A program made the translations under genes and the position numbers. A DNA stretch of 64,000 nucleotides from Eledone cirrhosa (Eukaryota), in the NCBI GenBank assembly GCA_964016885.1, contig OZ024747.1, positions 64,232,001 through 64,296,000 on the forward strand. Direction: 5' to 3'. Position 1 is the first letter of the stretch, and each line of letters begins with the position of its first letter. The notes beneath the pieces were generated by a model. The model made no database searches and was not told the origin of the DNA. It saw only the letters and a list, made by a program, of their open reading frames with translations. Shown here piece after piece: positions 3,150 through 59,888 of the stretch.

Positions 3150-3530
3150 ATGCTGAGAGAAAGGAGTACTCAATACCGAAGTAGAATTTTAACATTCATT
3201 TTATTAAGGCTAAATAGTGAGTCTTGTTTCTTTGGAGTTTCGCAGGGTCATCAGACTAGATGTAACATTTCCATATCAGATAGTGTATAAATAAAAACTC
3301 GATATAGGGGAGGGGGGATTTCAAACAGCCCTATCCTCTCCCATTGCCACTAACACCCTGTCTACCATATCTTAATTACTCTTCCACAATTAAATCCTCC
3401 CCTCCCATCTCGTGTTTTCCTTTATTTATACTGTCTGCTATCGAAACGCTAGTTGCTGTCTGCCGTCACTGTGATAAACAGACAAAACTCCAGAGTAACA
3501 GGACTCAGTATTTTGCCGTAATTAAATGAA
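3150..3530. mobile_element. Fold-back PLE mini-insertion (family B), decayed hammerheads in both arms
   Basis: 3195-3295 is the reverse complement of 3420-3530. Minus strand CTGATGA-ccctg-c-GAAAC-tccaaa. The tail matches 27320-27370. Confidence 0.75.
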
Positions 3531-7736: not shown

Positions 7737-7739
<3 letters not shown>

Positions 7740-7920
7740 AAAAAGTTTAACCCCGACGGCAGAGCTCAAGCTGTTTCGACGGTAATTTCAGAAATAGCCG
7801 TCGAAACTGCTTGAGCTCTGCCGTCGGTTAAACCTTTTCCGATTACCCACTCTACTACCCTAAGTATTGAGTACTCTGGTGCGTTATGGTCCATCTGGTT
7901 CCTTACCACAATTCCTTCGT

Positions 7921-7952: not shown

Positions 7953-8037
7953 CACACACAATACATAATATATATGCAAATAATAAATCTACACACGCAC
8001 CTAGCGCCACTCAGATATATGTATAGAATTATATATT

Positions 8038-8216
8038 TGGCAGTATTGGTAGAGGGTCGGACGCCATCTTTCGAGCATTAGTTACATCCCTTTACGGTCT
8101 GAGTTCAAATCCTGCCGAGGTTAACTTTGTCTTTCATCCTTACGGGGTCGATAAAATAAAGTACCAGTAATACACTGTGTAATTGCTGGCCTTGTGCCAA
8201 AAGTAGAAACAATTAT
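8038..8216 (+). mobile_element. tRNA-derived SINE (Meta-domain-like core)
   Basis: B box GAGTTCAAATCC, core gccgaggttaactttg(c/t)ctttcatccttacggggtcgataaaataaagtaccagt, tail gctggccttgtgccaaaagtagaaacaattat. Many copies in the window. Confidence 0.85.
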
Positions 8217-8489
8217 ATATCTACATAAACATATATATAATACATAATGGATATATTATAGAAATAATAATTCTGCATTCACATGTAGGTATGTGTGAAT
8301 GAGTGTATGGCAGTGTATGCAAGTGTGTGTGTGTTTGAGTGTGTGTGTGTGTATGATTGTGTGTGTGTGTGTGTTTCCATGACTGTTTGCGTGTGTATTG
8401 ATCACAAATGAATGTAAATGTACATGTATAATGAGCTTGTTGACATAGGTGCACGTAGAAGAATATCATATATTCGTGGAAATACATAG

Positions 8490-10527: not shown

Positions 10528-10921
10528 AGCGGAGATTCGGTAGAGGGTTGGACGCCATGCTTTCCAGCATAGTTACGTCCCTTTACAGTCTGAGTTCAAA
10601 TCCCGTCGAGGTTAACTTTGCCTCTCATCCTTACGGGGTCGATAAAATAAAGTACCAGTAATGTACTGGGTAATTGCTGGCCTTGTGCCTAAAGTAGAAA
10701 CAATTATTTAGACATTTAGACAAGGGGGGGGGGGGGGGGGGGGGCAGTATCGATAGTGCATCAGACGCCATGCTTTGCAGCATAGAGTGATGACTATATA
10801 CGGTCTGCGTTCCCGCCGAGGTTAGCTTTGCCTTTCATCCTTACGGTGTCGATAAAATAAAGCAGCAGTAATATACTGAGGGTAATTGCTGGCCTTGTGC
10901 CAAATGTAAAAACAATTATTT
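10528..10921 (+). mobile_element. Two tandem SINE copies separated by a poly-G run
   Basis: SINE core and tail at 10528-10708 and 10742-10921. Confidence 0.85.
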
Positions 10922-11096
10922 AGACATCCATTTAGTCCTCCGTACACATCCAGACATTTCCACAAAATTAATGAAAAGTGTTTGCACTGTTGTAACTGTC
11001 AGGTGTCGGTTTTCATGTCTCTAAGCGTAATGCTATGGTTGCTAAGGTTTTGGATTAAAAATCTTTGTTACTTTTCCTATACATATATACACGCAA

Positions 11097-11165: not shown

Positions 11166-11375
11166 ATAAAGAATCGGGGCCTCGACGGCATAGGTCTTGC
11201 CGTTTCAACATCTAGTTCCAGAGACTGTCTGGAACTAATTGTTGAAACGGCAAGAGCTCAGCCGTCGGCATCTCGACTCTTTATAATATAATCATACTCT
11301 ACTACACCAATTATCGAGAACTCTGTTGAGTAATTTGTCTAACCAGTTTCAAACTGAATCCATCCTCATTAAAAT
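11165..11375 (+). mobile_element. Fold-back PLE mini-insertion, subfamily A2
   Basis: gacggcataggtcttgccgtttcaac...gttgaaacggcaagagctcagccgtc hairpin; tail with GAGAACTC at 11316-11323. Confidence 0.75.
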
Positions 11376-11383
11376 ACATACAT

Positions 11384-11433
<50 letters not shown>

Positions 11434-11438
<5 letters not shown>

Positions 11439-11704
11439 ATAATAATAAAATTGAAGACTAAAATCCAAAGAGGGCTCGATAAGGAAAATATATATCAAAT
11501 ATATAAGAACCGTAGAGCAAATATATATATATATATAGTAATAATAATACATTTGAAGACTAAAATCCAAAGAGGGCTCGATAAGGATAAATATATATCA
11601 AATATATAAGAACCGTAGAGCAAATATTTATTAAAATTAGTTAGTTTCAGAACATCCCGTTAAGGGTGAGAGCAGCGATACTTTGCTTAAACTTTAATCT
11701 GTTA

Positions 11705-11740
<36 letters not shown>

Positions 11741-11820
11741 TTTTTATATATCTGATATATATTTATCCTTATCAAGCCCTCTTTGGATTTTAGTCTTCAA
11801 ATTTATTATTATTACTATAT

Positions 11821-11895
<75 letters not shown>

Positions 11896-12084
11896 GATTT
11901 TTATATATCTGATATATATTTATCCTTATCGAGCCCTCTTTGGATTTTAGTCTTCAAATTTATTATTATTACTATATATATATATATATTAAACATTTGC
12001 TCTACGGTTCTTATATATCTGATATATATTTATCCTTATCGAGCCCTCTTTGGATTTTAGTCTTCAAATTTATTATTATTACTA
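11434..12084. mobile_element. Head-to-head cluster of five family C PLE tail copies in (TA)n
   Basis: Unit cttatcgagccctctttggattttagtcttcaaatttattattattac occurs twice on - (11434, 11536) and three times on + (~11740, ~11897, ~11990). Decayed hammerhead at 11643-11693. Confidence 0.8.
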
Positions 12085-12528
12085 TATATATATATATATA
12101 CCTCATACATAATCCTATGTATTATTATAATAAATATAAATGTCATGATATTAATTTTAGTCGGGTAAATCGAATATGAATGTGTCTCCAGTTTATAGAA
12201 ATTTATAAGCTATTCTATTCTCCATTTTGTTTATATTAAGTGCATTGTTGAAATTGTTTACATCCACTCAGTGCTTTGAATAAATATTTGTACATTCATT
12301 ATAATCAAAAGCCAAAAAAAAAAACAAGATTATAATGCCTTACATAAAATTATCTATTCATATGTTTTGTATTCGTTTCATTCGTTTGGATTATTTCATA
12401 ATATAGTCTCATATATGTATTCATATATATACACATACATATATACTAGATATATATATTTACACATACATACATACTATATATACATACATACTTACAT
12501 ACAAGATATATATCCAAATACATACATA

Positions 12529-13699: not shown

Positions 13700-13838
13700 A
13701 TTTATTAAAATAACAGATTAAAGTTTAAGCAAAGAATCGCTGTTAATAAATATTTGCTCTACGGTTCTTATATATTTGATATATATTTTCCTTATCGAGC
13801 CCTCTTTGGATTTTAGTCTTCAATTTTATTATTATTAC

Positions 13839-13914: not shown

Positions 13915-14135
13915 TGAACTGCTAGAAATAGCAGTCAAATCTCAGCAAAATAATTCAATGCAATTTTATATAAAGTAGGATACATTAAAGTTGGATAAAA
14001 GACACCGTATCACGTATTCTCGATCGGGGATGAAAATAACATTTTTGTTCAGCTTTCTAAATTTATTAGTAATATTATAAAATGGTTTCTTTCTTACTTA
14101 TATTCATAATTTCATTTCTCATTGTAAATTTATAT

Positions 14136-14324
14136 AATTGTTTCTACTTTAGGCACAAGGCCAGCACATTACCCAGTGTATTACTGGTACTTTATCTTAT
14201 CGACCCCGTAAGGATGAAAGGCAAAGTCAACCTCGGCGGGATTTGAAGTCAGATCGTAAAGGGACGTAACTATGCTGGAAAGCATGGCGTCCGACCCTCT
14301 ACCGATACTGCCAATCCACCGCCT
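14136..14324 (-). mobile_element. tRNA-derived SINE
   Basis: Reverse complement of the SINE core and tail. Confidence 0.85.
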
Positions 14325-14721
14325 ATTGTAAATTTATATAATAGTATTAAATATTATACTCATTTTTCAACAATGCCAGGCTTAAACATTAAATCTATAA
14401 CAATTACAAACGATTATATATTACTATGCTCTTTTAAATCCAATATTCCTTACACAAAACTTCACAGAAACAGATACACAAACATTCACACACACACACA
14501 TACATACGTGTGTGTGTGTGTGTTGCATCATCTTAATTTTACGAGTCAAAATCACTATACTGTAAATGTGGAAATTTTACAATATAGAAAATTCTAATGC
14601 TTACAATGTTTGGTAAACAAACGACTTATCTTTTTACTACCCCACTGTCTATCTCTATCTCTCTTTCTCTCACTCTCTCTCTCTCACACTCTCTCCCTCT
14701 ACATACATTAATATATATATA

Positions 14722-14898
14722 TAACGGAGGAAATGTGGTAAGGAACCAGGTGGACCATAACGCACTAAAATACTCAATACTTAGGGTAGTAGAGTGGGTA
14801 ATAGGAACGAGTAGGAACCCGACGGCTGAGCTCAAGCCGTTTCGACGGCTAATTCTCGTCGAAACGGCTTGAACTCAGCCGTCGGGGTCCTACTCGTT

Positions 14899-14901
<3 letters not shown>
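14722..14901 (-). mobile_element. Fold-back PLE mini-insertion, family A
   Basis: gacggctgagctcaagccgtttcgacg / cgtcgaaacggcttgaactcagccgtc hairpin plus tail; (TA)n flanks. Confidence 0.85.
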
Positions 14902-16752: not shown

Positions 16753-16820
<68 letters not shown>

Positions 16821-16829
16821 TAAAAATTA

Positions 16830-17276
16830 GAAACTATATTTATATAACCATATTTATTTTATTATATATATATTTCAAGGGTACAAAGACACATTGGTAC
16901 GCTTTCATCAGATAAAATATAAACTTTGTTTTATAAATAGAGAGATACCCAAGAAAATCATACCTTATAGGTTCATTATTTAGCAACCAGTTATAATTTA
17001 AAGTACTCAACATTAAAGGATCTATTTATAAGTAGAAGGGGTATTTGATTTGTTAGAAGTCCAACACATATAAATGTTTATAACTGATTTAGAGCACTCA
17101 ACAGTTTACTAGAGTAAATATTCAATGGTATTAAATAAATGGAAACTATATTTATAAAACCCTATTTATGTTATTATATATATTTTAAGGGTACCAAGAC
17201 ACATTGGTACGCTTTCATCAGATAAAATATAAAGTTTGTTTTATAAATACCCATGAAAATCATACCTTATCGGTTA

Positions 17277-17280
<4 letters not shown>
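16830..17280 (-). mobile_element. Tandem (direct) pLTR/retrozyme-like unit, family F, period ~312 bp, two hammerheads
   Basis: aaactatatttat...gtacgctttcatcagataaaatat...aaaatcataccttat repeated at ~16831 and ~17143; (TA)n flanks. Confidence 0.8.
16856..16918 (-). ncRNA. Type I hammerhead ribozyme with (AU)n stem III
   Basis: attttat-CTGATGA-aagcgtac...gtaccctt-GAAA-tatatat-ATA-ataaaat. The second copy (~17170-17230) has GAAA changed to AAAA. Confidence 0.8.
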
Positions 17281-17315
<35 letters not shown>

Positions 17316-18034: not shown

Positions 18035-18310
18035 GTTGGTTGTGGGAAATGCCGGGTACACTTGCCGGCTCTTTGCTCTCGGAGTTCAAATTCTACCGAG
18101 GTCAATTTTGTCTTTCATCCTTTCCAGGTCGATAAAACAAAGAACCAGTTTAGTACTGGGATTGATTCTTCCTCTCTCTCTGGAAAAAATCTGCTGGACT
18201 CAGGCCTGGAGAGAGATGGGCTCCGCCAGGCTTAAGATGGCCCGAAATCGCTGTATATCTATACAGCGCCTCTACATCTAACAGGAGTTACGAGACCATA
18301 CAATACAAAT
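18035..18310 (+). mobile_element. SINE variant with extended 3' tail
   Basis: SINE core followed by ctcaggcctggagag...caggcttaa...caggagttacg, shared in reverse with 44875-45213. Confidence 0.7.
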
Positions 18311-23498: not shown

Positions 23499-23843
23499 CT
23501 CGGAATAAATTACCTTTTTATGATGTCTACCTGTTTTATTATTCATTCTTTATATACACTCCGGAATATAGAAGAATCAGAAACTGAGTTTCTTTAACTA
23601 TTCTTCCATAACTCGTTGAGTAACTCCTCACCGTACGCCGACTCTATCTAGTGTAGTAACTAACCATTACTGCATTCAGGATAATCCTAAGCATTTCTTG
23701 CATTATATATATATATATATATAATTGGTGTTGGATGCTTAAAGCGTCCGTTAGCGGTAGGCCGTTTGAGCACTCGCTGATCTTCACCTCAGTCTGAGTG
23801 AAGTTGTACGGAAAAGGAAAAACAACCGTACAACTTCAGTCAG

Positions 23844-23886
23844 ACCGAGCTGAAGATCCGTATAAGGTGAAACAATTGTTCTCGGT
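23844..23886 (+). ncRNA. Minimal type I hammerhead ribozyme (family D)
   Basis: accgag-CTGAAGA-tccgtataaggt-GAAAC-aatt-GTT-ctcggt; palindromic stem III ACAATTGT. Mirror copy at 24418-24460 (-). Confidence 0.9.
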
Positions 23887-24168
23887 ATGGTGAAGTAACT
23901 ATTGTGGAACTACTTCTACCAAACTCGTTCCATGGACAGAGTTCTCTACTACTACGGATATAACCCTCCAGTGTTCTACTATTATATATATATATATTAG
24001 AAAAAAAGAGAATCAGTGTTGCGACGAATGGAATTTATTGCACATATTGCAATCGTTTCTTTGGCGACCAGCTCGAGGCACGATCGATGTGATGATCGAA
24101 CCTGACTCTGAAAATCGCAAGGTCCTCAGATACGCTTTGATTCTACGAAGCAGATTTTCCTAATGAGA

Positions 24169-24260
24169 CGTATCTGAGGACCTTGCGATTTTCAGAGACA
24201 GATTCGATCATCACATCGATCGTGCCTCGAACTGGTCGCCAAAGAAACGATTGCAATATG
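24169..24260 (+). ncRNA. Type I hammerhead (family E) with non-canonical GCA triplet
   Basis: cgtat-CTGAGGA-ccttgcga...tcgccaaa-GAAAC-gatt-GCA-atatg. The same variant is in the mirror arm; the relative at ~13553 has GTA. Confidence 0.7.
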
Positions 24261-24588
24261 TCCAATAAATTCAATTCGTCGCAACACTGATTCTCCTTTT
24301 TTTCTGATATATATATATATAATAGTAGAACACTGGAGGGTTATATCCGTAGTAGTAGAGAACTCTGTCCATGGAACGAGTTTGGTAGAAGTAGTTCCAC
24401 AATAGTTACTTCACCATACCGAGAACAATTATTTCACCTTATACGGATCTTCAGCTCGGTCTGACTGAAGTTGTACGGTTGTGCTTTCCTTTTCTGTACA
24501 ACTTCACTCAGACTGAGGTGAAGATCAGTATATGGTGAAACATTTGTTCTCGATATGGTGAACTAACTGTTGTGGAACTACTGATATA

Positions 24589-24931: not shown

Positions 24932-25100
24932 GAGGGATTCAGTTTGAAAATGATTGGGGTAGTAGAGAATTATTATATAAAGTATCGAGACCCAACGGCT
25001 GAGCTCTTGTCGTCCGTTTCAACAGCTAGTTGCAGACAGTCTGCAACTAGCTGTTGAAACGGTAAGAGCTCAACCCGTCGGATCCTGATAATTCATAATA
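24929..25100 (-). mobile_element. Fold-back PLE mini-insertion, subfamily A2
   Basis: gtttcaacagctagttgcagac / gtctgcaactagctgttgaaac hairpin; related to 11165-11375. Confidence 0.75.
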
Positions 25101-26895: not shown

Positions 26896-27188
26896 GTTTT
26901 AGTAAGTTAGAAGAGATCGATAAAATTAGTCCTAGTTATGTATATATTTCAATATATTTCTCCAGACCACAGCAGACGTTTATAGAACTTCCTGGCAAAT
27001 ATATATGTTGCGTGGCTGGTTCCAATATAGAGATCGATAAATCATAGAACCGCTAATGACATAGTTCAGTAATGGTTGGACAGCTTGTTGGCAGTTAAAC
27101 AGTTTGTACATGATTCTTCTCTTGCACATTGTCTATAGCGAAGGACAAGTCTGTCGTTCTCTCTGTCTGTATATGATATATATATATA

Positions 27189-27386
27189 TTAAGGCTAAAA
27201 TGTGAGTCTTGTTATTCTGGGGTCTAGCCTGTTTCTCACAGGGTCATCAGACAAGGGTTCATGTCTGATGACCCTGTGTGATAAACAGGTGAAACTCCAG
27301 AGTAAAAAGATTCACTTTTTAGCCTTAATAATAATAGAACTCTACTTCGATATTGGGTACTCCTTTCTCTAAGACGTCAACCCCAT

Positions 27387-28462: not shown

Positions 28463-28823
28463 TATATTATTCAAAATGTTAATAAATGAAAAATATTCTC
28501 ATAATCAAAATATATATTTTATTATACATATTTCAAAGGTACAATGGTGTTTAAGTACGGTTTCATCAGACAAAATATATGATTTGATAGGTGACATACC
28601 GCTACGGTTTTGATTATTCAATTCCAGTATTGGCAGTACTGGAATTGAATAATCAAAACCGTAGTGGTATGTCACATATCACATCATATATTTTGTCTGA
28701 TGAAAACGTACTTAAATCAAATCATATATTTTGTCTGATGAAACGTACCTTTGAAATATGTATAATAAAATATATATTTTGATTATGATAATATTTTTCA
28801 TTTATTAATATTTTGAATAATAT
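28463..28823. mobile_element. ~360 bp fold-back (family F-like) with hammerheads in both arms
   Basis: Centre attccagtat-tggc-agtactggaat. Minus-strand hammerhead at 28514-28578: atattttgt-CTGATGA-aaccgtac..gtaccttt-GAAA-tatgt-ATA-ataaaatat. Confidence 0.85.
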
Positions 28824-28925: not shown

Positions 28926-29067
28926 TATTTCATATATGTTAACATTTCTGGTAAGGACATCTCATTTAAAATATAATCTTTTAAAACGTGTGTGTGTGTG
29001 TGTGTGCTTTAAAAGATTATATTTTAAAAGAGTTGTCCTTACCAGAAATGTTAACATATATGAAATA
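28926..29067. repeat. 60 bp inverted duplication around (GT)n
   Basis: tttcatatatgttaacatttctggtaaggaca...ttttaaa mirrored across a (GT)n spacer. Confidence 0.9.
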
Positions 29068-29312
29068 CGTTAACTATAAAAAATATGTGTTAGAAAGATA
29101 ATCAAATCCAAACAACCGTAGGGATGCTTATATTGATTCCATATTCTATTTACATCCATATGTAACTTAAAATTAGAAAAAGTTTACAATTCTGTCTGGT
29201 TTTTCTAATTGGTATTCTAAATAGCTTATAGTCACAAAAGCATATGTTGTTAATATTTGAATGTTCGGAAGTTTAACAAAACATAGTTATTTCGATATCA
29301 ATACATGATAAT

Positions 29313-29450
29313 AATTGTTTCTACTTTAGGCACAAAGCCAGCAATTACCCAGTGCATTACTGGTACTTTATTTTATCGACCCTGTAAGGATGAAAGGCAA
29401 AGTCAACCTCGGCGGGATTTGAACTCAGATCATAAAGGGACGTAACTATG
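29313..29450 (-). mobile_element. tRNA-derived SINE (truncated)
   Basis: SINE core and tail in reverse. Confidence 0.85.
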
Positions 29451-30789
29451 ATAATAATAATGATTAAATTAGTCTGGAAAATATTGGAATACTAATTTGG
29501 TATTTATTGGTATTCCATTAGAGGTATTACTCTATGCTGTTCCTTTAGTTATATACATTTCATTTTCCTTTCTTCTGTGTATATACTATGTAGTTTTACT
29601 TTCCGTGTGTTTACAGGAAGGGGAAATATCACTGGCATTTCTAAACTCCAGAGACCTCAGGTATCCATGCCATTTTCATAACATATTTTGAATGAAAGAC
29701 TGCCTAATATTGTCAATTAATTTGGAAAATATTCAAGAATGTTGACAACGTTAGTAATATTACTTTCGCTTTTATTTTTAAGTTGGTTTTTGGAGCTTAA
29801 AGAAGCGATGACTCTTACATAAAACTATTGTGAAAAATTTACATTTGAATATAAACAGGTGGTTTTATATTATATAGCCATACAGATGAGGATGTGGTTT
29901 TGATGGTTTCCTATTAAAAGAGATATTGCTCCTTTTAAACTCTTGGATTTTCATTACTTCTGAAACGACATGGAAGGTGTTTGAAAAGGCAGTGGTTCCG
30001 GGCGGAATGATTAATACGGGTTCTGTGGTTCGGACTTTAGCACAATATGAATTGATGAGAGGAGAGGAGATAATGAAGACGGTAGTACCGTAATAGAGGT
30101 AGCATATGACCAACAATTTCTGTAAAGAAGAGACCATTTTAGAAGCGGTAAAAGTGTTTGTCTTAAGTTAGCGAACTACAGAGGGGATACTGTTTAGTTA
30201 AATCAATTTGTTAACTGCCAATGCTACGCTTAATTTAAATTTATCTATAGGAATTGAGCGTGTTATTCTCTGTACTATCAGGAACTCACACTTCTTCAGC
30301 TACGGTGTTTACTGATATAATTAATACTGAATCAATGGATAATATTACTAAATATGATTTATATTCAAAGCATATTATTATATCTCAGAAATAGATATTC
30401 AAATATCGTTACTATATCTTAGAAATAAATGTAGTTTCTATTGATTTCAGCACTGCAGAATGAAAAATCTAAATGTAATTTATTTTACACACATTAAGCA
30501 GATAATAATTATAGATATGCACTTTTTCATAGATATAGTATTGTGCTGGGCTGGTTGTGTAATTTTATATATAAAGTATATGATTAACGAAGATATCATT
30601 TTCATCTGTGTTATATACATACAGGCAGAGAAGCGGTCTAAAATGTACTGATATTTGTTAAAATCCATTAATCTTGAAGAAATTGAAGAGTATTAGAATG
30701 CCCGAATCGACATACCTAATGCATTAGTGTTTTTAGCGTTGAGCAAACTACATTGATATCCTAACCGTGTTGGCTTGATCTATCATTCC

Positions 30790-42331: not shown

Positions 42332-42536
42332 TAGGAACCAGTAAGACCCCGACGGCTGAGCTCAAGCCGTTTCGACGCCTAATTCTGGACTAAAAAAATC
42401 CAGAATTAGCCGTCGAAACGGCTTGAGCTCAGCCGTCGGGGGTCTTACTGGTTCCTATTACCCACTCTACTACCCTAAGTATTGAGTACTTTGGTGCGTT
42501 ATGGTCCACCTGATTCCTTACCATATTTCCTTCGTT
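42332..42536 (+). mobile_element. Fold-back PLE mini-insertion, family A
   Basis: Hairpin with ~57 bp arms around ctaaaaaaa, plus the family A tail; (TA)n flanks. Confidence 0.85.
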
Positions 42537-47687: not shown

Positions 47688-47808
47688 GTAATAATAATAA
47701 ATTTGAAGACAAAATCCAAAGAGGGCTCGATAAGGATTAGTTTCAGAAGATCCCGTTAAGGGTGAAAGCAGCGATTGTTTGCTTAAACTTTAATCTGTTA
47801 TTTTAATA
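47687..47808. mobile_element. Family C mini-insertion with hammerhead variant at 47739-47789 (+)
   Basis: agttt-CAGAAGA-tcccgttaagggt-GAAA-gca..tg-CTT-aaact, joined in inverted orientation to the GAGCCCTC tail. Confidence 0.75.
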
Positions 47809-47809
47809 A

Positions 47810-58890: not shown

Positions 58891-59175
58891 ATATTTATTC
58901 GAGTATGAGTTGGTTAATTACCGACACTTCAGTATGCAGGCTAGAGCACTCGGGGAAGTGTGGAGGTAGTGCTCCTTACTCCGGAGTATATTTAAAAACA
59001 AGAAGTGTAAGTCAACAGGTTAAAAGTAACATCGTTTATTCATATTCGCTGATATATATATTTCGGTGATAACCATTATGTAACACATGTTGCATTATGT
59101 AACACATGTTGCACCGAAATATATGTAACGTTAACTATGAATAAACGAAGTTAATATTAACCTGTTGACTCACAG
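58890..59175 (-). mobile_element. Fold-back PLE mini-insertion (family I-like)
   Basis: agtcaacaggttaa...tttcggtg mirrored by caccGAAAtatatGTA...ttaacctgttgact. Tail GAGTGCTC-tagcctgcatactgaagt resembles 24820. Confidence 0.7.
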
Positions 59176-59231: not shown

Positions 59232-59888
59232 TCTTTATTAAGTTAAAGTATGAGGCTTGTTCCTTGGTTGAAGCTAACTTCACACAACACGTGTACACAA
59301 AAACAATTGTAGATAACATGACACAATCTTCAGTGGATCAGATACATGGAGGTTTTGGCTTAGTGCGAATAGAGCATTTGGGCTTTCTCATTCTTAGATT
59401 CCATTCCAAGTTCTGTGACTAACGCATGTATAGTGGAGTAGTTGACTGTTACTTTAATACTCTGGTGGATGGAGTTGGCCATATGCTTGATGCTCTCCAT
59501 TGTGTTAGTCTCTTATTGAGGTTCATAGTTACTCTCTTGTGCCTGGGAACAGAACCGACATCAACCAAGTATTAGTGGTAAAGTGTTCGGTCAATTAACA
59601 ACGCTGAGCACAACCGAACTGGTAAGTTGCCTTATGCTATCTGAACATGCACACCCACCCTACTATATATAGTTTTTTTTCTTTATATATATATATAATT
59701 TAATTACATAATAAAAAATACAATATAATTATTCCATTACCAAAGGTTTTAAGAAACTAGACCATCGTCCAGCCCGTTCATTGAAACATTTGGTAATGGA
59801 AAAATTATATTGTGTTGTTTATTATGTAATAGCTCTGTACTATACATAGAGCATTATTTTTTCCTCTACCTTTTCTACGGAAATACTT

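Follow-up and report, generated by a model that had tools for sequence, protein, structure and literature searches.

Hammerheads in the pseudo-LTRs (pLTRs) of PLEs, partial tandem insertions, a bias towards (TA)n and an origin of retrozymes from PLEs are already published. PLE insertions typically show partial tandems, inverted pLTRs and tails (PMC8557442; PMC3846280), and most PLE hammerheads occur singly and dispersed, have a palindromic stem III and are of low activity (PMC4209133). A PLE from a lizard was shown in vitro to nick AT-rich DNA and to begin reverse transcription internally, downstream of the hammerhead, on uncleaved RNA; hammerhead mutants of this element insert normally, and insertion in vitro does not require hammerhead cleavage (PMC11167929). 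PLEs of the Hydra clade lie nearly all in (TA)n, with a stem III that is not (AU)n (PMC8557442, supplement), and in Octopus vulgaris 190 families of PLEs account for 6.83% of the genome (PMC13282606). Non-LTR retrozymes, where expressed, are described as highly self-paired RNAs (PMC7229834). For an active retrozyme to be called, a preprint (bioRxiv 10.64898/2026.07.22.740005) demands two complete hammerhead units, and one out of nine predicted retrozyme dimers cleaved in vitro.

With this in mind, we analysed an insert of 464 nt that lies between two (TA)n tracts (16753-16814 and 17279-17314) in a window of 64,000 nucleotides from Eledone cirrhosa, the window being the whole stretch of DNA studied. 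We regard it as the probable explanation of the data that this locus is an old, one-off partial-tandem insertion of the pLTR end of a very abundant (TA)n-targeting PLE family, and the 312-nt unit delimited by its two hammerheads is probably not the propagating form. The features on which the argument builds are as follows.

16753-16814, no strand: (TA)n tract at the 3' end of the element, its likely target (tandem-repeat scan).
16815-16973, minus strand: copy B, the 3' pLTR-like piece (repeat alignment and hammerhead motif).
16855-16919, minus strand: type I hammerhead B, core intact (hammerhead descriptor scans).
16863-17174, minus strand: hypothetical 312-nt cleavage-to-cleavage monomer, 26% GC (circular fold).
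16974-16979, minus strand: joint between spacer and copy B, which defines the 312-nt unit and is rare in the family (read and contig depth).
16974-17128, minus strand: spacer, family sequence downstream of the hammerhead (contig depth).
17129-17278, minus strand: copy A, the 5' pLTR-like piece, whose 5' end abuts (TA)n (repeat alignment).
17167-17229, minus strand: type I hammerhead A, decayed (hammerhead descriptor scans).
17279-17314, no strand: (TA)18 tract at the 5' end of the element (tandem-repeat scan).
28464-28823, no strand: related hammerhead family as a head-to-head inverted pair, stem III UAUGUA (repeat and hammerhead scans).

Read along the minus strand, the insert consists of copy A (17278-17129), a spacer of 155 nt and copy B (16973-16815), which ends about 48 nt beyond its cleavage site in an AT-rich tract abutting (TA)n. 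The direct repeat (17129-17284 against 16818-16982) shows 85.5% identity over 166 nt (E 5e-50), and the two copies differ by 10 substitutions in 145 aligned nucleotides, that is a divergence of 7%, plus four short gaps. An earlier note on this DNA had described a tandem unit of 312 bp; the repeat is real, but it extends over 1.5 units, and no array of about 312 bp was called by TRF. That the unit lacks an ORF is borne out, the longest stop-free frame within the insert being 61 amino acids, with no Pfam match to the frames of the insert. The surroundings are AT-rich non-coding DNA, with 117 tandem-repeat rows that are mostly microsatellites, and the window is rich in dispersed and palindromic repeats. 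An insertion bias for microsatellites or (TA)n is visible as (TA)n at both ends of the insert and as (TA)n loose ends in other copies, in a window where tracts of (TA)5 or longer are common and lie within 100 nt of 15% of random positions.

Both copies carry a type I hammerhead on the minus strand, with predicted cleavage sites exactly 312 nt apart; the earlier note had placed the two hammerheads at a distance of about 312 bp. Hammerhead B has an intact core, with CUGAUGA at 16911-16905, GAAA at 16876-16873 and predicted cleavage at AUA after 16863; its stem I comprises 8 bp, its stem II 3+4 bp with a long loop, and its stem III is the 10-nt AU palindrome AUAUAUAUAU. In hammerhead A, with CUGAUGA at 17221-17215 and predicted cleavage at AUA after 17175, AAAA replaces GAAA at 17186-17183, which amounts to a change of G12 to A at 17186, and stem I has one mismatch at 17170; stem III is an 8-nt palindrome. 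G12 is the catalytic base of the hammerhead. The copy said to have lost GAAA is thus indeed copy A, second on the plus strand but the 5' copy in the RNA. Common to both stems III is AUAUAUAU(AU), and the (AU)n composition that had been pointed out is confirmed, as a palindrome in each copy. The description as minimal hammerheads is true of stem III only, since both motifs have an 8-bp stem I and a stem II of 7-10 bp.

The motifs are not of chance origin: a strict hammerhead descriptor gave a mean of 0.03 matches per shuffled window, and a relaxed descriptor with palindromic stem III found five real GAAA-type matches in the window against none in 30 shuffles. Rfam returned no match at the gathering score, and in its E-value scan there was no hammerhead family among the best 150 of 308 rows, just noise driven by microsatellites and hairpins. 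No two-sided compensatory change occurred among the four window copies, an uninformative result. The MFE folds of the isolated hammerheads do not contain the hammerhead form (z -1.3 to 1.0), as is expected of AU-rich, dimer-type motifs.

Public sequencing runs were used to see how the family is distributed. Five of eight listed runs cover the stretch in part, with no more than 31% of its sampled words, and four were aligned to the locus at 80% likeness. X1 and X2 are contigs from a single sample of organism A, X6 comprises raw RAD-seq reads of the same organism, hence reduced-representation data, and X4 consists of contigs from an organism B. As X1 has just 31% of the locus's sampled words, it stems from another individual or species. 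Because filtering can create dips and depth is not copy number, positive signs such as loose ends and strand switches were given more weight than depth. The family comprises 5,477 contigs in X1 and 27,731 of 12.5 million reads (0.22%) in X6. In X1, depth amounts to 442,000 and 176,000 on the two CUGAUGA bins and is still 142,000-336,000 on the spacer at 17066-17129, so that the spacer consists for the most part of what the family itself has downstream of the hammerhead, likely the 5' leader of the parent PLE. Past 17066 depth drops stepwise to 48,000, 33,000, 14,000, about 1,000 (16986-17017) and finally 315 (16970-16985). The joint bin, 16970-16985, thus has a depth of 315 in X1, 330 in X2, 0 in X4 and 15 reads in X6; X4 has a depth of 0 across 16954-17017, and X6 has 3-4 reads at 16986-17017 and 15 at the joint versus about 2,700 on the cores. 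As such, the hammerhead core exceeds the joint about 1,960-fold (~2,000) in X1 contigs and 177-fold (~180) in X6 reads, figures subject to the filter caveat and taken from another individual, and this rarity of the joint argues against the 312-nt unit as a common unit, be it as dimers or as dispersed copies. Part of the fall-off in depth reflects subfamily divergence rather than truncation, since the family diverges from the locus copy upstream of 17249 and in stem II; an abundant subfamily has UAUGUA as stem III.

Loose (TA)n ends occur at 17118 in 24 and 26 contigs of X1 and X2 (one sample) and at 17023 in three contigs of X4. Within the spacer just two 8-mers, at 17023 and 17068, agree with (TA)n in 7 of 8 positions, and both coincide with depth steps. 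Three plus-strand pieces (X1 #5, X1 #6 and X2 #11, two of them maybe the same copy) end at 16968 with 16-45 letters unmatched, and in two X1 contigs the strand switches at 16968, which is the pattern of inverted PLEs; 16974-16978 is bridged in none of the 24 pieces listed of 10,925. Joints in X6 that go back 313 were rejected as evidence of an array, as they link equivalent places of A and B. Taken as a whole, depth, loose ends and opposite-strand joints show a dispersed high-copy family with truncated, partial-tandem and inverted insertions, the pattern of PLEs. G12 is kept in 99% of the family depth in X1 and X2 and in 97% of X6 reads, hence its loss from copy A is local decay, and none of the 40 difference rows listed of 142 falls inside a CUGAUGA box. 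Copies A and B carry one minority letter at the equivalent sites 17230 and 16920, where about 99% of the family differs; this fits a single template, but a relative in the window has the letter too, and it may be ancestral.

That relative is the head-to-head pair at 28464-28823, which is 74% identical over about 100 nt to the locus family, with hammerheads at 28569 (minus) and 28735 (plus) and an inversion centre about 66 nt upstream of the core. In its right arm the half with CUGAUGA is duplicated in tandem over about 38 nt, and the loop of stem II has been lost. The window has further PLE-type hammerhead families; their stem III palindromes are different, and several form inverted pairs close to (TA)n. 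At 23777-24582, an inverted repeat of 750 bp (94.6%) contains two converging type I hammerheads (23850 and 24454) with stems III of CAAUUG and UAAUUG; a separate palindrome lies at its centre, and a third partial copy adjoins (TA)n. A third hammerhead family forms a head-to-head pair beside (TA)n at 27187-27330 (27250 and 27265) and a single copy at 3150-3530 (3254). It is close to Hydra-clade hammerheads, with a bulge after CUGAUGA, a U before GAA and a CUC/GAG stem III, and was read by eye, having been missed by the relaxed descriptor.

Several other repeats share this environment. Young units of 102-110 bp (92-100% identical), in tandem and inverted with (TA)n between them, lie at 11419-12099, 13706-13838 and 47688-47809; descriptor scans found no hammerhead core in them, and they could be a hammerhead-less (Naiad-like) PLE end. 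A SINE-like family of at least 15 copies (8029-8222, 10537-10927, 14131-14360, 18065-18300, 29307-29452 and about ten more) presumably resembles octopus SINEs. Short palindromic elements, MITE-like or inverted PLE-like and often flanked by (TA)n, are found at 2264-2537, 7738-7840, 11166-11284, 14804-14900, 24976-25097, 28926-29067, 42334-42455, 59006-59174 and 59703-59830.

No reverse transcriptase or GIY-YIG domain was found with Pfam in 192 of the 229 stop-to-stop frames of at least 55 amino acids in the window (the other 37, picked by eye, are mostly microsatellite overlaps); the four weak matches lie below cut-off and are neither. Membership of the family among PLEs is thus suggested by non-coding hallmarks. 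On the minus strand, 17013-17045 holds a pyrimidine tract and an AG ending at 17022, with an ATG 9 nt further, at 17013; these may be the end of an intron and the start codon of the parent element. Pattern scans for relatives gave no match in viral contigs, metagenomes or prokaryote genomes, and 25 loci found in metagenomes with a looser pattern were judged chance, with a stem I of at most 3 bp and no profile match. This particular hammerhead family is not described in the literature retrieved on octopus hammerheads, Penelope or retrozymes, nor did its motif match the look-ups made in the supplements of PMC8557442 and PMC13282606.

The locus nevertheless carries what marks a PLE pLTR: a type I hammerhead, a palindromic stem III, direct terminal repeats and a tail beyond the hammerhead. 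Copies A and B share nearly the same breakpoint with the inverted copies, 55-65 nt upstream of the core, and the 3' ends of the family fall in AT-rich tracts some 45-150 nt beyond the cleavage site. We thus propose a course of events that draws on PLE biology. A PLE reverse transcriptase with its GIY-YIG endonuclease, supplied from elsewhere, would nick a (TA)n tract, and an uncleaved RNA of the family would be copied from an internal AU-rich tract that lies some 45-150 nt downstream of the hammerhead; such an internal start would give the 3' end of copy B. Once at a favoured 5' boundary, about 55-65 nt upstream of the core of the hammerhead, the enzyme may jump to a more downstream position, either on that RNA or on a sister RNA, whereupon the spacer and the hammerhead would be copied once more up to the same boundary and the product would be joined to (TA)n via microhomology between AT-rich sequences. 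The same DNA would result if the coding body of the parent had been deleted internally, and the two origins cannot be told apart. Later, as the copies themselves show, the two halves drifted apart by that 7% and copy A lost G12.

The main rival to this partial-tandem insertion holds that a small, old, non-autonomous subfamily, either a gutted PLE or a true non-LTR retrozyme, uses the 312-nt unit, and that the locus is its decayed daughter. Tandem precursors would self-cleave as double hammerheads and circularise, and a PLE reverse transcriptase would copy the circle about 1.5 times into (TA)n. The locus is non-coding with a type I hammerhead, and its 312-nt spacing lies within the range of about 150-450 bp of retrozymes (PMC7229834); animal retrozymes are reported as sister groups of PLE pLTRs (bioRxiv 10.64898/2026.07.22.740005). 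A circle would explain without coincidence both the letters common to A and B and the fact that the homology of B stops at the cut of A, and the depth of about 1,000, from 12-13 contigs, at 16986-17021 in X1, with 315 at the joint, may also be counted in its favour, yet the joint is some 2,000-fold rarer than the hammerhead, and the listed copies that reach 16968 continue elsewhere or invert. Moreover, instead of the two complete hammerheads asked for by the preprint, there are 1.5 units with the dead core of copy A. Nor does the circle look like the highly self-paired monomer of non-LTR retrozymes: its MFE of -43.6 kcal/mol equals that of shuffled sequences (mean -43.7, z 0.01, 100 shuffles), in a comparison run without a known retrozyme as control. 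The monomer hammerhead fold of B lies 10.5 kcal/mol above the ensemble, and the stem III duplex between A and B contributes only -3.9 kcal/mol. In the double-hammerhead model stem III strands swap (PMC4209133), so that the core of B would serve the site of A, and the site of B would be left to the dead core of A. Such a predicted fold could cut at most at A's site, via B's core, and a 312-nt monomer would therefore be released poorly if at all. Altogether, we hold a retrozyme-like subfamily to be rather unlikely, and propagation as a 312-nt unit, which the earlier note had inferred, is not supported, given the scarcity of the joint (~1/2000 of the core in contigs, ~1/180 in reads), the single intact core and the ordinary fold. 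The note had named, as refuting its retrozyme reading, occurrence as nothing but a partial tandem at the ends of full PLEs together with the lack of a monomer RNA; as far as DNA goes, the partial tandem appears to be what is found. Likewise unlikely is a chain in which the locus is a retrozyme arising from a PLE end: AU-rich priming on (TA)n, a fixed 5' boundary and a template jump would have created a 312-nt unit, head to tail, from which a small subfamily arose that gives an RNA circle in trans to a PLE.

The arrangement may also owe nothing to an RNA unit, if copy B came to lie directly behind a long-tailed copy A because their subfamily inserted twice, independently and in short form, or through a later duplication or recombination of DNA. 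In so abundant a family neighbours are to be expected, AT-rich tracts are targets, and the joint adjoins an AT-rich stretch; however, no (TA)n separates the spacer from B, the starts of the two copies differ by no more than about 4 nt, one rare letter and the stem II loop are common to both, and a simple tandem duplication would leave two whole units. We thus consider this origin quite improbable. Another proposal concerns the (AU)n stem III, which the earlier note took to be complementary to the (TA)n target: annealed to nicked (TA)n, it would act as a guide, the hammerhead-cleaved RNA end driving targeting. Indeed, depth falls about 3-10-fold from the tail across stem III, although this drop is confounded by divergent subfamilies, and three X4 contigs join (TA)n at 16873, within stem III, showing that some copies have a junction there, yet the ends of the insert itself do not lie at stem III. 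Hydra-clade PLEs favour (TA)n with a non-(AU)n stem III (PMC8557442, File S1/S2), other families of the window, with stems of the CAAUUG or CUC/GAG type, are likewise found next to (TA)n or close by, and an abundant subfamily here has UAUGUA. Any (AU)n palindrome, moreover, matches (TA)n, which is itself self-complementary. A guiding role of stem III is hence highly improbable. Since published (TA)n-targeting PLEs carry other palindromes, it is likely the ordinary dimerising palindrome of an AT-rich family; it can serve as junction microhomology, as AT-rich tracts in general can, but targeting does not require it.

In summary, the locus is probably a partial-tandem insertion and, as such, a further decayed PLE end in a genome that has a great many, and the earlier note was right on the link to PLEs, on a stem III of dimer type and on (TA)n as the target context. 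The pattern of ends in the family is of modest value: 3' ends at TA-like tracts downstream of the hammerhead, together with a preferred 5' boundary upstream of it, fit internal initiation of reverse transcription and bear on microhomology priming by (TA)n-targeting PLEs. Were a 312-nt subfamily and its circle real, they would document how, in an invertebrate, a PLE pLTR turns into a retrozyme, a transition that the preprint (bioRxiv 10.64898/2026.07.22.740005) states it did not examine outside vertebrates.

Compared with known systems, the locus is close to EN+ PLEs (PMC4209133, PMC3846280, PMC11167929), with which it has in common pLTR hammerheads of type I with a long stem II and a palindromic stem III; both have terminal repeats in direct orientation, a tail past the hammerhead and an AT-rich target, and its family, like theirs, forms head-to-head inverted pairs and mostly dispersed short copies. 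It differs from them in having no ORF between the repeats and an A-U pair at 10.1-11.1, where G-C is usual. Hydra-clade PLEs (PMC8557442), among them Hydra-1_Obim from octopus, resemble it in their preference for (TA)n, a hammerhead near the element end, the U before GAA and the palindromic stem III; the hammerhead tabulated for Hydra-1_Obim is, however, a different sequence, and the clade is defined by protein motifs (RWK, DKT, a CxCX5C linker and no CCHH). With non-LTR retrozymes (PMC7229834; bioRxiv 10.64898/2026.07.22.740005), finally, the locus shares its non-coding nature, low GC content, type I hammerhead, a size of 312 nt within their range and a derivation from, or relation to, pLTRs, but unlike them it consists of 1.5 units with one dead core, a rare joint and a circle that is not unusually structured.
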